A stretch of 64,000 bases of DNA from Minisyncoccota bacterium (GTDB lineage: Bacteria > Patescibacteriota > Minisyncoccia > Phycocordibacterales > JABAAK01), in NCBI GenBank assembly GCA_963668425.1, contig OY764332.1, positions 41,241 through 105,240 of the forward strand, written 5' to 3'. Positions 59,845 through 63,909 of the stretch are shown piece by piece. The stretch's first letter is position 1. Each line of letters starts with the position of its first letter. The notes beneath the pieces are model-generated. The model was not told the origin of the DNA, did no database searches, and worked only from the letters and a program-made list of their open reading frames with translations. The translations under genes and the position numbers were made by a program.

Positions 59845-60067
59845 ATCACCGATGGCATCCTGTTTGCTTTAAGATGGTACTTGTTGCCATGGTGGCAAAT
59901 AAAAAAAGCGGTAATGCCTAGGCATTACCGCTTCCTAATGAACAAAACAACTAGCGAATGAACAAAAAACATGGAACTGTCCGAGGACAGTTTCGCCACC
60001 ATGCTTTTCATTCCATTCATTACCAGTGTACCGCCATCACCACTTTCAAGCAAGAGGATATTTTCAG

Positions 60068-60203: not shown

Positions 60204-60824
60204 CTAAAGATCACCCACCTTTTTTGCCGCTCGCTTTTGCCCGGCGGCTTTTAACTTTTTCTCCACACTCTTTTTTGCAGATTTATACTGCTGCTCAGTG
60301 AGTGTGCTGAGCCACACATCAACACCATCCTTCCCAACAGAGAACCGGTAGATATGCATGCCTTTCTTTCCCATGAAAAGCACTATACCCATTTTTGTTT
60401 CATCTCCCCTGCTCTCTTGGAACTTGCCACTGATTACCTTCCCTTTTAGATTGAGAAGAAACGTGTCAGCGGACTTGCCAAACGCTCTTTCAGAGATTAG
60501 CAGTGAAGGGGCTCTCTGCTCTCCATGCATTGCTTCATCTGCGACCATCGCTGGCAGAGAAAGCGTCTTGGTTGCAACCGCTTTTTCTCTTCCCAGTAGC
60601 AATCGCAACTTTCGGCTGAGTGGGCGTAGGTAGAGATTGTTTCCTCTGTACAGCGCAACCATCTCAACCTCTTCTGCTTCAAACACCACTCCAATTTTCT
60701 TTTCAAACCCGGGAAGGGAAAGAAAAACTGCGCTTTCTTCTTTATCAGAATCAGAATTTGCGGCTGCATCCGTAAAGGATAGCAAGCATATCACTACCCT
60801 TGCTATCAGCAAAACTTTCTTCAC
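60204..60824 (-). CDS. Secreted hypothetical protein.
   Basis: Signal peptide MKKVLLIARVVICLLSFTDAAANS. Length is 206 aa. Confidence 0.5.
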   Translation of the reverse strand: MKKVLLIARVVICLLSFTDAAANSDSDKEESAVFLSLPGFEKKIGVVFEAEEVEMVALYRGNNLYLRPLSRKLRLLLGREKAVATKTLSLPAMVADEAMHGEQRAPSLLISERAFGKSADTFLLNLKGKVISGKFQESRGDETKMGIVLFMGKKGMHIYRFSVGKDGVDVWLSTLTEQQYKSAKKSVEKKLKAAGQKRAAKKVGDL

Positions 60825-60957
60825 AATTCACCTCTCCAAATCCAATCAAAATCAAAATATCAACTTACTATATATTATACCCCATTTCTTCTATTTTGAC
60901 AAGTTCTTGATAGCACCTTTAAGGTTTACTACACCACCAGTCAATTTTTGAAATAAG

Positions 60958-61043
<86 letters not shown>

Positions 61044-61044
61044 G

Positions 61045-61117
61045 TCCGCCCACTAGGGCTCGAACCTAGGACCTACCGGTTAAGAGCCGGTTGCTCTACC
61101 AACTGAGCTATGGGCGG
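61045..61117 (-). tRNA. tRNA-Lys (anticodon CTT), CCA not encoded; 3 nt upstream of tRNA-Leu(TAG).
   Basis: Reverse complement CCGCCCA-TA-GCTC-AGTTGGTA-GAGC-A-ACCGG-CTCTTAA-CCGGT-AGGTC-CTAGG-TTCGAGC-CCTAG-TGGGCGG-A. The C1-G72 first pair is unusual but fully paired. Confidence 0.72.
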
Positions 61118-61535
61118 AGTGAGCAGACAGTAAAAGAATACCACAGTATTCTTTTGTTTCTGCGAACGACAAGTTTATCAAACTACGGCTTGATATGGGC
61201 GGAGTGAGCAGACAGTAAAAGAATACCACAGTATTCTTTTGTTTCTGCGAACGACAAGTTTATCAAACTACGGCTTGATATGGGCGGAGTGAGCAGACAG
61301 TAAAAGAATACCACAGTATTCTTTTGTTTCTGCGAACGACAAGTTTATCAAACTACGGCTTGATATGGGCGGAGTGAGCAGACAGTAAAAGAATACCACA
61401 GTATTCTTTTGTTTCTGCGAACGACAAGTTTATCAAACTACGGCTTGATATGGGCGGAGTGAGCAGACAGTAAAAGAATACCACAGTATTCTTTTGTTTC
61501 TGCGAACGACAAGTTTATCAAACTACGGTCTGATC
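61111..61535. repeat. Perfect tandem array of 5 x 85 bp (the last unit diverged at its end). Unit 1 begins inside the 5' end of tRNA-Lys, and each unit carries an A4-stem-loop-stem-T4 hairpin.
   Basis: Unit: tgggcggagtgagcagacagtaaaagaataccacagtattcttttgtttctgcgaacgacaagtttatcaaactacggcttgata. Copies start at 61111, 61196, 61281, 61366 and 61451. tgggcgg is the reverse complement of the tRNA-Lys 5' acceptor strand. Hairpin: AAAAGAATAC-caca-GTATTCTTTT. Confidence 0.95.
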
Positions 61536-61614
61536 TTGGCAATGAATGGGTGTTTTATAGTATACCGCAAAAGACAGTTACAATTTCCGCATACTTGCTA
61601 TACTGAATGCATAA

Positions 61615-61696
61615 GCCGGAGTGGCGGAATTGGTATACGCGCACGACTTAAAATCGTGTATCGCAAGATATGTGGGTTCAAGTCCCACCTCCGGCA
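61615..61696 (+). tRNA. tRNA-Leu (anticodon TAA), long variable arm, CCA not encoded.
   Basis: GCCGGAG-TG-GCGG-AATTGGTAT-ACGC-G-CACGA-CTTAAAA-TCGTG-TATCGCAAGATAT-GTGGG-TTCAAGT-CCCAC-CTCCGGC-A. Confidence 0.85.
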
Positions 61697-61748
61697 CAAA
61701 AAATTCTGCCTCCTCGTGGCGTCTACTAGTCAGCGTCAATCAGAGATT

Positions 61749-61822
61749 GCCGGCATTGGTATACGCACTGGTCTTATAGCAGTGAGGTTACACCCATGGA
61801 GGTTCAAGTCCTCTCCTCGGCA
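61749..61822 (+). pseudogene. Degenerate tRNA-Leu(TAG)-like copy. It has a 5' acceptor/D-arm deletion and a disrupted anticodon stem, so it is a probable tRNA pseudogene or integration remnant.
   Basis: GCCGGCATTGGTATACGCACTGGTCTTATAGCAGTGAGGTTACACCCATGGAGGTTCAAGTCCTCTCCTCGGCA. The 3' 50 nt are identical to tRNA-Leu(TAG) at 60958-61041. The 5' part lacks about 9 nt of acceptor/D-stem, and the anticodon-stem 3' half is replaced (GCAGTG versus ACCAG). Confidence 0.5.
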
Positions 61823-61834
61823 CTAAACACAATT

Positions 61835-61868
61835 CCGCCACCCTATTGGGTGGCGGTCGTTTATTTTT
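61835..61868 (+). terminator. Rho-independent terminator after the plus-strand tRNA pair.
   Basis: CCGCCACCC tatt GGGTGGCGG tcgtttattttt. Confidence 0.6.
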
Positions 61869-61924: not shown

Positions 61925-62566
61925 TTATCGGCGCAATCCTCGGAACCTTCGACGCTCCTGCCACTCATGTGAGTGGTTTGAGTGGTGCGTCCCGAGGGCA
62001 CGAAACCCTATGATTGCCGGCCGAGTGCGGCGAACTTCTTCCCGTACTAGAAATCTCTTGGTGCCGGCCGACCCTTCCAAGGAGATTATGGGGGCGTTAT
62101 AATGCACCGTCATATCTCCTCCGGCAGTGTGGGCAACACCACTGTTTCCTACGGAGGTAACAGTCCGGGATTTGTTCACCGGGTACTTCTCAAGAAGCTT
62201 CTCCAGCAACGCAATGGTTGCTACGTCTTCCAGTTTTTCCTTCCCTTCCTCCTTCGCTTGGAGGACCTCAAGGGCTACCTCCTGGACCTCTGGGTTGTCT
62301 TCCCCGAGGTCCTGCCCTGTCAGTCCAGCCACCCACTCCAGGACCCCTTCTAGGCTGATATGTTTTGGTAGCCCTACTATCCTGGCGTTGGAGCCAATGT
62401 CTGTCCCCAGATCAACCTTTACGGTCAAATCTGTCTCTAGAGCCTGCCCTTTTTTTAATGCCGGATCAGGACGATGCCCAAGGCGGAATACCTCGTCGGC
62501 ATTAGCAAGTGTAACATTAGCCACCACAGTGAAAGCAAACATAACAAACAATTTTAAAAATTTCAT
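61925..62566 (-). CDS. Secreted hypothetical protein, shorter paralog of 54857..55918 (track ORF 61925..62662; start taken at the Met preceding the signal peptide).
   Basis: MKFLKLFVMFAFTVVANVTLANA signal. ...LTGQDLGEDNPEVQEVALEVLQAKEEGKEKLEDVATIALLEKLLEKYPVN and ...RRTRPAIIGFRALG parallel the paralog. The local GC is visibly higher than the window average. Confidence 0.5.
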   Translation of the reverse strand: MKFLKLFVMFAFTVVANVTLANADEVFRLGHRPDPALKKGQALETDLTVKVDLGTDIGSNARIVGLPKHISLEGVLEWVAGLTGQDLGEDNPEVQEVALEVLQAKEEGKEKLEDVATIALLEKLLEKYPVNKSRTVTSVGNSGVAHTAGGDMTVHYNAPIISLEGSAGTKRFLVREEVRRTRPAIIGFRALGTHHSNHSHEWQERRRFRGLRR

Positions 62567-62850
62567 TTCCTTTTCCTTTCCTGGCAAAATGCCAGGGTAA
62601 AAATTGAGTTTTTCATCAGAACCTCTGATGATTATTTTTCGGGCACATAGCCCGCATAACATGACTAAAAACTATCACGTTATGTGGACTATGTTTCCTT
62701 TTAAGATTTTCAATGTGTCTCTATTTCGTCCTACCATGGACTCATCAGGTAAACGGTATCAGTTTACGATAGAGGGAGTTTTTTAATAGAACTCCTTGGA
62801 AAACTATAACAGATTCTGTTCACACGCTCTGTTGGACGTGTAAATGTTCG

Positions 62851-63909
62851 CTATTCTGGCACTACGCTTAGTGCCAATCCATCTCTTGATACGTCAAGTT
62901 GAACGTATCCCCCCACAATCTTCTTTCCGTCCAGCTTGACGGGGATACCCTCTCTCTTAATGAAATCTGTTGCCGCCTGCTTGTATGCGGCAGTATTTAG
63001 AGGGATACTGACTTCGTGATCCTTATAAATTAAATCCTTTACCTTTTTCACGGACTTATCACTTATCTCTCTGAGTCCGTATGATCCCAGGATTCCGGGA
63101 TCGGCAGAGGCAGTTTCCTTGGCAGTGGCGGTTTTTCCATCTTCCTCCTCCACCTTCTGAAACATGACTACTTGCCTTACGGCGTAGTCATATCCCATAT
63201 AACAGGGAAAAGCATTAGATGGGTTTTCAAACCCATTTTGATACTGAGAGAAGACCTCCATGATCTCCTTTCTTCCCTGCAGACATCCATACCCGAAATG
63301 GGTTTCTTTCGGGTCTTGATCCAGGACCCTTTGAATCACCGCCTGGAGCTGTGCCCGATTCTTAATTTCCATTGGAATCAGCTCGCGGACATTTCGGTAG
63401 GACAACACTTTTGGTTCTGTCCCAGACTTGCTTTCCCGAGTCAATCTTACGAATTTATTGGGAAATTCCGAGTGTTGGTAGATCCTCTGACCTTTTACAT
63501 CCTCATACAGACCAAGCTGGTCGAGGATGTGGGTTTCCAGATCGTCTATGGAGACCTGGGTCCCGAGCAGTGCTGATCCGACCCTGTAAGACTCCCTCCA
63601 TAGATCTTCTGGGCTTAATACCCTTATATCTACGTCTGTTTTCACAGACGGCACCTCTACTGTCAGCTTTGACCTGTGAGGCCAATAGCTGACAAGTGCC
63701 CGACGAGTGTTCGTCTCCTTGACAATCTCTTCAATCGCCTCTTGGAGGCGATCTGGATCTAGGTCCAATGCCTCGGCAAACTTATTCCGTCTTTCCTGGT
63801 GGACCGGGTGGGTACTTACTGCTCTACGCTCCATGTAGGGCAGGAACCGAACAGAAGGCATACTCTGTTCAGACCCTTTCTTATATGCCCACCACACTTT
63901 GGCGGACAT
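62851..63909 (-). CDS. Hypothetical protein (352 aa from the ATG at 63909; the reading frame stays open upstream to the window edge, so the gene may be longer).
   Basis: ORF with no recognised motifs. The in-frame upstream sequence to 64000 (...SADKEAILEAAQKGFESDLKFFEIQATPGI-MSAKVWW) has no stop. The region has higher GC than the rest of the window. Confidence 0.45.
   Translation of the reverse strand: MSAKVWWAYKKGSEQSMPSVRFLPYMERRAVSTHPVHQERRNKFAEALDLDPDRLQEAIEEIVKETNTRRALVSYWPHRSKLTVEVPSVKTDVDIRVLSPEDLWRESYRVGSALLGTQVSIDDLETHILDQLGLYEDVKGQRIYQHSEFPNKFVRLTRESKSGTEPKVLSYRNVRELIPMEIKNRAQLQAVIQRVLDQDPKETHFGYGCLQGRKEIMEVFSQYQNGFENPSNAFPCYMGYDYAVRQVVMFQKVEEEDGKTATAKETASADPGILGSYGLREISDKSVKKVKDLIYKDHEVSIPLNTAAYKQAATDFIKREGIPVKLDGKKIVGGYVQLDVSRDGLALSVVPE

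Follow-up and report, generated by a model that had tools for sequence, protein, structure and literature searches.

Organization of the tRNA-Lys(CTT) locus

The DNA analysed here is a 64-kb window of contig OY764332.1 from a Minisyncoccota bacterium, and its subject is an 85-bp tandem array that begins inside a tRNA gene. Two divergent tRNA transcription units are present at the locus. On the minus strand, tRNA-Lys(CTT) (61044 to 61117; 71.6 bits in Rfam) is followed 2 nt downstream by tRNA-Leu(TAG) (60957 to 61041; 58.3 bits), which is the second gene of that transcription unit. Divergent from tRNA-Lys, tRNA-Leu(TAA) lies on the plus strand (61615 to 61697; 63 bits). All three genes were called by ARAGORN and matched in Rfam. 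The array (61109 to 61534, to which no strand is assigned) occupies most of the spacer between the two transcription units, and was delimited with Tandem Repeats Finder (TRF), a separate repeat search, an exact-match search, and a comparison of its units. TRF reports a single strong array at 61109 to 61528 with a period of 85, 4.9 copies, 100% matches, and a score of 840; all remaining tandem repeats in the 64-kb window score 71 or less. The separate repeat search recovered the identical 85-bp register, and the array is confirmed as a real feature of the sequence.

The units lie head to tail as direct repeats of 85-bp period, as in a bacterial minisatellite or variable-number tandem repeat (VNTR) locus. 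Units 1 to 4 (61110 to 61194, 61195 to 61279, 61280 to 61364, and 61365 to 61449) are 100% identical, and unit 5 (61450 to 61534) differs by two adjacent mismatches near its distal end (GGCTTGAT to GGTCTGAT). A preliminary description of this DNA had reported five perfect units; the array and its period were as described, but perfection ends after 4.9 copies. Similarly, the overlap between unit and gene, which had been put at 7 nt, is 9 nt (61109 to 61117, TATGGGCGG, corresponding to tRNA nt 1-9). Each unit thus carries nt 1-9 of tRNA-Lys(CTT), the leader, and approximately 76 nt of upstream sequence. Read on the tRNA strand, it comprises approximately 49 nt of conserved upstream sequence with the extended -10-like TTTGATAAACT, then an AT-rich hairpin whose 3' arm contains TGTGGTATTCT, a 17-nt leader, and finally the first 9 nt of the tRNA. 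The preliminary description had listed serial duplication of the tRNA promoter/leader among its possible explanations, and the composition of the unit, with its promoter-like motifs, agrees with that proposal.

Within the material searched, the unit is specific to this locus. A 72-nt unit core has five exact occurrences in 64 kb, none of them outside the array, where 0 are expected (100 shuffles), and a blastn search of the window with the unit (word size 7) gave matches confined to the array. In 1.3 Mb of related loci, the unit is present at the orthologous locus only. Interspersed repeats and miniature inverted-repeat transposable elements are found at multiple loci, which is not the case for this unit within the window and the 1.3 Mb of related loci; the genome-wide generic interspersed repeat that the preliminary description had named as a refuting outcome is therefore not what was found in this material. 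As that description had also stated, the array is not a set of clustered regularly interspaced short palindromic repeats (CRISPR), because its units abut with no unique sequence between them. A coding repeat was also considered and rejected, since the period of 85 is not a multiple of 3 and the open frames reach only 43-49 amino acids and are unsupported. No RNA family in Rfam matched the array at E <= 1.

The distal, unrepeated part of the spacer (61535 to 61614, no strand assigned) was examined by spacer comparison with related genomes (L087, L001, L085, L086, L088, and L090) and by local alignments. It carries a degenerate restart of the unit (CTTGGCAATGAATGGGTG) and, on the minus strand, a GGTATACT element (AGTATACC, 61559-61566) that is also kept in genomes with short spacers and is probably the ancestral -10 element of tRNA-Lys. 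A promoter scan additionally identified a promoter-like site for tRNA-Leu(TAA) on the plus strand (61577 to 61604), consisting of GTTACA, 16 nt, and TATACT preceded by TG (TGCTATACT at 61596-61604). Its -10 block is kept in all relatives.

Copy number at orthologous loci

Orthologous loci of eight related genomes were fetched via homologues of the neighbouring 206-amino-acid open reading frame (ORF) and of IF-2, and the spacer between tRNA-Lys and tRNA-Leu(TAA) was compared. For L092, the spacer length was taken from tRNA coordinates, and L089, which is without the tRNA cluster, falls outside the comparison. The window spacer measures 497 nt, comprising the five units and the distal part. In L090, the spacer is 242 nt and contains two identical 84-bp units followed by a 36-nt third (2.4 copies). 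One unit plus a partial restart is found in L085 (159 nt), L086 (158 nt), and L088 (162 nt), and no unit is present in L087 (75 nt), L001 (78 nt), or L092 (80 nt). In L091, a small ORF is inserted in place of the unit. The window spacer minus 4 x 85 nt is 157 nt, matching the one-unit genomes. Copy number at the orthologous locus, whose comparison across related genomes had been proposed in the preliminary description, therefore differs between species (0, 1 plus a partial copy, 2.4, or 5), as is characteristic of VNTR loci, and the hypervariable minisatellite offered there as one explanation is borne out at this level. A metagenome scan with the conserved tRNA-Leu linker returned matches from other species only, and the cluster members of the window IF-2 are L085 and L086 only.

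The repeat phase is identical in all unit-bearing genomes: each unit starts with TATGGGCGG and ends with ...TGAT. Such a common phase shows that the duplication had a single origin. Where only one unit is present, a restart of 10-36 nt follows it (ATGTGGCGGAGTG in L085, GAGTGAGCAG in L086, and ATGGGCGGAGTGAGCAGGTA in L088), and the restarts are significant in local alignments for L086, L088, and L090. Units are identical within a genome and divergent between genomes, a hallmark of arrays that have recently and repeatedly expanded and contracted. The window unit shares 98.8% identity (84/85) with that of L085, 95% with L086, 85% with L090, and 75% with L088. L085 is the closest relative, with 97.3% nucleotide identity in IF-2 and 93.6% at 4-fold sites, and yet it has a single unit; therefore, the expansion to five units is recent.

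A copy number of five could be a product of assembly, if only one or two units exist in the genome itself and the assembler over-traversed the repeat loop or otherwise mis-set the copy number. The 100% identity of four units would be compatible with such an error, and 425 bp exceeds a typical short read, so that short reads could not resolve the array. In contrast, long reads trivially span 425 bp, and the contig names and sizes in the clade suggest long-read assemblies. The window also has unique flanks on both sides of the array, and slight divergence of the distal unit is a feature shared with natural arrays. Additionally, an independent genome, L090, has the same arrangement with 2.4 identical copies; its contig is labelled as circular, at 465x. 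An assembly artefact is thus very unlikely to account for the array.

Sequence constraint and promoter-like motifs in the unit

The unit is conserved well beyond the level of neutral sites. Its identity to the window unit, in comparison to the identity at 4-fold sites of IF-2, is 95% vs 67% for L086, 85% vs 58% for L090, and 75% vs 50% for L088, and the content of the unit is therefore functional sequence.

Promoter-like motifs account for part of that content. An extended -10 motif, TGnTAnnnT, lies 15-24 nt before the mature 5' end in four of the eight tRNA transcription units of the window (Thr, TGGTATAGT; Leu-TAA, TGCTATACT; Met, TGGTACCAT; and Lys, TGGTATTCT). Given a background of 0.0017 per position, this enrichment has a binomial p of about 3e-4, and TGnTAnnnT is a candidate for the sequence that defines the tRNA promoters of this lineage. 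On the tRNA-Lys strand, the motif occurs twice per unit. The first extended -10-like motif, P1 (TGGTATTCT, 61135 to 61143, minus strand), was located by motif scan in the 3' arm of the palindrome described below and ends 17 nt upstream of the tRNA-Lys 5' end; it repeats at minus-strand starts 61228, 61313, 61398, and 61483, and is kept in L088 (TGGTATTAT) and L090. The second, P2 (TGATAAACT, 61172 to 61180, minus strand), lies 37 nt upstream of P1 within the conserved TTTGATAAACTTGTCGTTCGC and repeats at minus-strand starts 61265, 61350, 61435, and 61520. The P2 block is kept across five species, with counterparts in L088 (TGATATGGT) and L090. Each unit consequently contains a TG-preceded -10 at a workable distance from the gene, as in sigma-70 promoters of the extended -10 type.

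The preliminary description had pointed instead to TTGATA on the minus strand as a -35-like element. The hexamer is present in each unit (61181 to 61176, and at intervals of 85), but it was rejected as a -35, since the hexamer 17 nt downstream (AACAAA) is without the key T and the sigma-70 scan was negative, with no minus-strand promoter called in the array. TTGATA, which falls within P2, is better read as part of the extended -10-like TTTGATAAACT.

A conserved hairpin in the unit

Every unit contains the palindrome AAAAGAATAC-CACA-GTATTCTTTT, as had been described, in the form of a 24-nt perfect palindrome at 61132-61155 and at intervals of 85. It is the core of a longer hairpin, GCAGA-C-AGTAAAAGAATAC / CACA / GTATTCTTTTGTT-TCTGC (61123 to 61163 in unit 1, no strand assigned, recurring at +85, +170, +255, and +340), with a stem of 18-20 bp. 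As RNA, the palindrome has a predicted dG of -8.4 (minus strand) and -9.2 (plus strand) kcal/mol, with z about -4, and the stability of the hairpin significantly exceeds that of shuffled sequences (z -3.5 to -4.5). Per-species folds and alignment folds show that each of the five species retains the hairpin, and two of its pairs have changed in a compensatory manner.

A role of the palindrome as a weak terminator in both directions, as put forward in the preliminary description, was rejected. The palindrome has 2 G-C pairs, its T-run lies within the stem, and the terminator scan calls no intrinsic terminator in 61111-61535.

A conserved hairpin in five phased copies could also mean that the array itself is selected as a cis-regulatory or structural element. 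The palindrome would then serve as the operator of a dimeric DNA-binding protein, or else form a structured element of single-stranded DNA or plus-strand RNA. The five copies, phased at 85 bp (approximately 8 helical turns), would assemble a nucleoprotein complex or adjust the activity of the two divergent tRNA promoters. Such a role is suggested by the strong sequence constraint on the unit, the compensatory hairpin changes with G.U patterns favouring the plus strand, the overlap of the palindrome with a -10-like motif, and the persistence of at least one unit across deeply diverged genomes. However, L087, L001, and L092 are without any unit, and copy number ranges from 0 to 5 with no preferred number apparent. 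No candidate binding protein is known, no Rfam match was obtained in the array at E <= 1, and the structure is supported by five sequences and two compensatory pairs only. A selected array of this type is therefore regarded as unlikely.

The integration hypothesis

tRNA genes are classic integration targets, and the preliminary description had favoured repeated partial integration at an attB-type tRNA. In this case, the units would be scars of repeated site-specific integration and excision, left by the accretion of att sites. Several features of the region are reminiscent of such activity. For instance, a degenerate, 5'-truncated tRNA-Leu(TAG)-type copy (61745-61830) lies nearby, and in relatives, tandem elements of 220-241 bp each include 14 nt of the tRNA-Leu 3' end. 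Additionally, the tRNA-Leu(TAG)-tRNA-Lys-spacer-tRNA-Leu(TAA) block (60956-61697 in the window) is inverted relative to its flanks in comparison to L085 (4482-4885), with two inverted tRNA-Leu genes at the breakpoints.

The array does not have the organization of att sites. The duplicated part of tRNA-Lys is the 5' end (nt 1-9), only 76 nt separate successive copies, and there is no cargo; the direct repeats of a tRNA 3' end flanking cargo that mark such sites are not present. From 48 kb to the end of the window at 64 kb, the ORFs scanned (all those of at least 110 amino acids in 48-57 kb, and seven plausible ones in 56-64 kb) gave no integrase, recombinase, or transposase Pfam domain, and no match was obtained in viral contigs or phage genomes. 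In relatives, the content of the unit is the conserved native upstream region of tRNA-Lys. The ORFs downstream of the cluster (o245, 61925-62662, and o352, 62851-63909) have syntenic homologues in L085, L086, and L088. The GC-richer DNA noted beyond the tRNAs differs negligibly from the rest, as GC content is 0.46-0.48 at 61-64 kb vs 0.35-0.48 window-wide and 0.45-0.48 in the first 10 kb. With the flanking ORFs syntenic and GC content within the range of the window, the DNA beyond the tRNAs is native and not an island.

The degenerate tRNA-Leu copy exists as described and belongs to a separate family of tandem truncated tRNA-Leu copies. These copies are present in all relatives with no element between them, and the window copy is the sole surviving member of the tandem arrays that they form there. 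The inversion explains why the window has a Leu(TAG)-type pseudo-copy beside tRNA-Leu(TAA). The locus is recombination-prone, as seen from the inverted block and from truncated tRNA-Leu arrays on both sides of the cluster in relatives. Site-specific integration is a highly improbable source of the 85-bp units.

Proposed origin and effect of the array

Overall, the array is likely to be a locus-specific minisatellite formed by tandem amplification of the tRNA-Lys(CTT) promoter/leader module. In the ancestor of the subclade, one unit plus a partial restart would have placed a direct repeat of 10-36 nt on either side of 85 bp. The array could then expand or collapse through slippage during replication or through unequal homologous recombination between direct repeats of this kind, possibly promoted by the hairpin. 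The restarts would provide the substrate needed both for expansion and for deletion to the short form, and cycles of expansion and collapse would yield units that are identical within a genome at a copy number that differs between genomes. In the present genome, a recent expansion would have led to five units. A different origin of the unit, as a duplicate of the whole ancestral spacer through recombination between the similar CGGAGTG motifs of tRNA-Lys (antisense) and tRNA-Leu(TAA), was considered and is unsupported; the distal spacer and the second half of the unit are not significantly similar (p 0.3-0.96).

If the promoter-like motifs are active, the tRNA-Lys/tRNA-Leu(TAG) transcription unit would be preceded by five extra promoter modules arranged in series, in addition to the older distal promoter. 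Transcripts initiated in upstream units would have longer 5' leaders, to be removed by RNase P. Judging from the sequence, the array probably either raises or modulates the supply of the two single-copy tRNAs, or is nearly neutral.

Several observations weigh against amplification of a promoter/leader module. No convincing -35 is found at canonical spacing from either -10-like motif, and we infer the promoter activity of the units at the level of motifs. The plus strand, which is antisense to tRNA-Lys, gives the more stable hairpin (consensus -21.1 vs -15.1 kcal/mol), with fewer broken pairs in its alignment fold than the minus strand, and a promoter function leaves this plus-strand bias unaccounted for. 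Additionally, five as the exact copy number is taken from the assembly.

The missing canonical -35 is also what would be expected if the array were a purely neutral minisatellite, with extra units that are irrelevant to transcription and tolerated since RNase P trims the leaders. Copy number is variable, zero included, and the perfect homogeneity of the units implies a very recent and possibly transient expansion, both of which are consistent with neutrality. However, the constrained native upstream region is reproduced in full in every unit, promoter-like motifs included, and it is hard to see how the extra copies would be transcriptionally silent. Pure neutrality, the null form of the minisatellite explanation, is thus possible, but not the explanation that we would expect to hold.

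As an amplified promoter/leader module, the array provides a clean comparative example of copy-number change in the promoter region of a single-copy tRNA operon, in an uncultivated and genome-reduced bacterium of the candidate phyla radiation (CPR). It would represent a cheap evolutionary route to altered tRNA supply without gene duplication, and the recombination-prone locus is a potential strain-typing marker. Otherwise, it is an ordinary minisatellite and opens no long-standing question.

Additional features of the locus and of related loci

The tRNA-Leu(TAA) transcription unit continues on the plus strand through a conserved linker and the degenerate tRNA-Leu copy (together 61698 to 61830, identified by repeat search and comparison with relatives), with a small hairpin in the linker (CAATC-AGA-GATTG, 61727-61739). 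It is closed by a GC-rich hairpin and T-run resembling an intrinsic terminator (CCGCCACCCTATTGGGTGGCGG TCGTTTATTT, 61835 to 61856, plus strand; terminator scan). Neighbouring ORFs encode YchF, a short IF-2, and RbfA, and further upstream are a class I aminoacyl-tRNA synthetase, GroEL, and a Mur ligase. The IF-2 homologues are all from Patescibacteria/CPR, and the closest named one is from a Candidatus Kaiserbacteria metagenome-assembled genome (83% amino acid identity), which points to a Kaiserbacteria-like CPR bacterium as the host and, from the origin of that genome, to a marine sponge as its probable habitat. Three hypothetical proteins flank the tRNA cluster (60204-60824, 61925-62662, and 62851-63909, all on the minus strand) and are without a Pfam domain. 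Relative to L085, these have 82%, 64%, and 51% amino acid identity, respectively, vs 97% for IF-2, and thus evolve much faster than their housekeeping neighbours. In related loci, ORFs further along have weak Pfam matches to a type IV secretion system pilin (PF18895).

Other structured elements are also present in the region. A perfect 14+14-nt palindrome with T-runs (AAGCGGTAATGCCT/AGGCATTACCGCTT, 59903-59936), located downstream of rbfA and before tRNA-Cys, is likely to be a bidirectional terminator; a weak Rfam match to L20_leader (E 0.088) overlaps it and is probably spurious. Rfam also returned matches to the Plastid-ycf2 5'UTR antisense to two of the tRNA genes (61044-61117 on the plus strand, 37.9 bits, and 61615-61697 on the minus strand, 22 bits). 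Both are below the gathering score, the same is seen in L086 and L091, and they are evidently cross-matches rather than real elements. Between the conserved hypothetical genes o352 and o245, 1.2 kb from the array, is a type III hammerhead ribozyme motif (62718-62775, minus strand) with an intact catalytic core (CUGAUGAG ... CGAAA, and a UC cleavage site). Its Rfam score of 40.3 bits (E 2.7e-6) does not reach the gathering score of 48.5. The motif is kept in three relatives (L086, at 2299-2356 on the plus strand; L085; and L001), with a compensatory change in stem I (GUAAAC/GUUUAC vs GCAAAC/GUUUGC).

Relatives contain tandem arrays of D-arm/5'-truncated tRNA-Leu copies with a period of about 125-129 bp and up to 5 extra copies, following every tRNA-Leu isoacceptor seen (TAA, TAG, CAG, and CAA). 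Examples are L001 4280-5085, L088 12942-14366, L087 13958-14536, L092 12684-13391 and 1539-1807, and L081 3444-3652; the window has one decayed copy only. Two hairpins are found where copies join: a GC hairpin (GCCAC-NNN-GTGGC) and an 8-bp one that has a loop of 3 nt (mostly AGA) and a covarying stem (CACCAATC/GATTGGTG, CGTCAATC/GATTGACG, and CAGCGGTC/GACCGCTG). ARAGORN calls the truncated copies as tRNAs with degenerate acceptor stems, and in some arrays the anticodon is mutated to TAC. For annotators and assemblers, it is relevant that these calls in relatives are probably pseudo-tRNAs. The tandem element of 220-241 bp is present in 2.1 copies in L086 (3280-3734, 95% identical) and L091 (14527-15023, 100%), in Leu(TAA) and Leu(TAG) contexts, and is absent from the window. 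In each copy are the ~14 nt that end a tRNA-Leu gene, as though the element had entered the gene in its T-loop region. No Rfam family matches the element, which may be a miniature insertion element.

The truncated tRNA-Leu arrays with their covarying linker hairpins are more unusual than the 85-bp array. Considered along with the conserved, covarying hairpin of the tRNA-Lys unit, they make it conceivable that the 85-bp array is part of a wider repeat system of the tRNA-Lys/tRNA-Leu cluster, specific to the clade and under selection. One of two mechanisms could underlie such a system: a dedicated recombination or structured-RNA process, for example with hairpins as sites recognized by a recombinase, or expressed tRNA-like decoy RNAs that generate and use the arrays. 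In the case of decoy RNAs, copy number would tune tRNA supply or defence in reduced genomes. We consider a common system of this kind decidedly unlikely.

Comparison with known systems

Literature searches on tRNA-associated tandem repeats in CPR bacteria returned nothing relevant. The amplified promoter/leader module was compared with repeats and promoter arrangements known from other genomes.

The nearest classical analogue, although not a homologue, is the repeat of the Escherichia coli tyrT-tyrV operon (rttR/tpr region), which is a bacterial precedent for tandem repeats that start within a tRNA gene. The distal tyrT/tyrV repeat, which was checked here, has 3.1 copies of 178 bp at 95% identity and extends 19 nt into tyrV. 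In both systems, the units include a terminal segment of the tRNA, 9 nt in the present array and 19 nt in E. coli. However, the E. coli units are located downstream of the tRNA gene and repeat its 3' end, whereas the present array lies upstream and copies the 5' end with the promoter/leader. The E. coli repeat is also partly annotated as a small RNA (rttR) and a small ORF (tpr), in contrast to the present array, in which there is no plausible ORF and the units are perfectly homogeneous. The tyrT-tyrV repeats were reportedly ascribed to unequal recombination in classical work by Egan and Landy in 1978.

Integrative elements targeted to tRNA genes, with their attL and attR sites, resemble the array in that a partial tRNA copy lies beside the intact gene. 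The att repeats consist of the tRNA 3' part and are associated with kilobases of cargo and an integrase, none of which holds for the present array.

In animal mitochondria, control-region repeats may include part of a flanking tRNA gene and form hairpins, and their copy number varies via slipped-strand mispairing. The present array is similar in that its units start inside a tRNA gene, are hairpin-forming, and vary in copy number. The mitochondrial arrays, however, belong to a different genome type with a different mode of replication and are tied to a replication origin or termination, whereas the present array is associated with a bacterial promoter.

Promoters in series upstream of stable-RNA genes are known from rrn operons, in which P1 and P2 follow one another and the leaders are removed by processing. 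The present array likewise has several promoters, here putative, in series before a stable-RNA gene. The rrn promoters are distinct and differently regulated, whereas the present units are identical recent duplicates with promoter-like motifs only.

Mycobacterial interspersed repetitive units (MIRUs), which form VNTR loci, are head-to-tail intergenic units of 40-100 bp, and their variable copy number is ascribed to slippage or recombination. The present array is similarly head-to-tail and intergenic in a small genome, with a copy number that differs between related genomes; its variation is between species. MIRUs are a dispersed family with many loci between the genes of operons, whereas the present unit is found at one locus and consists of a promoter/leader with a gene fragment. 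By analogy, the class to which the array belongs fits the bacterial intergenic minisatellites of the MIRU-VNTR-like type, in this case at a single locus.

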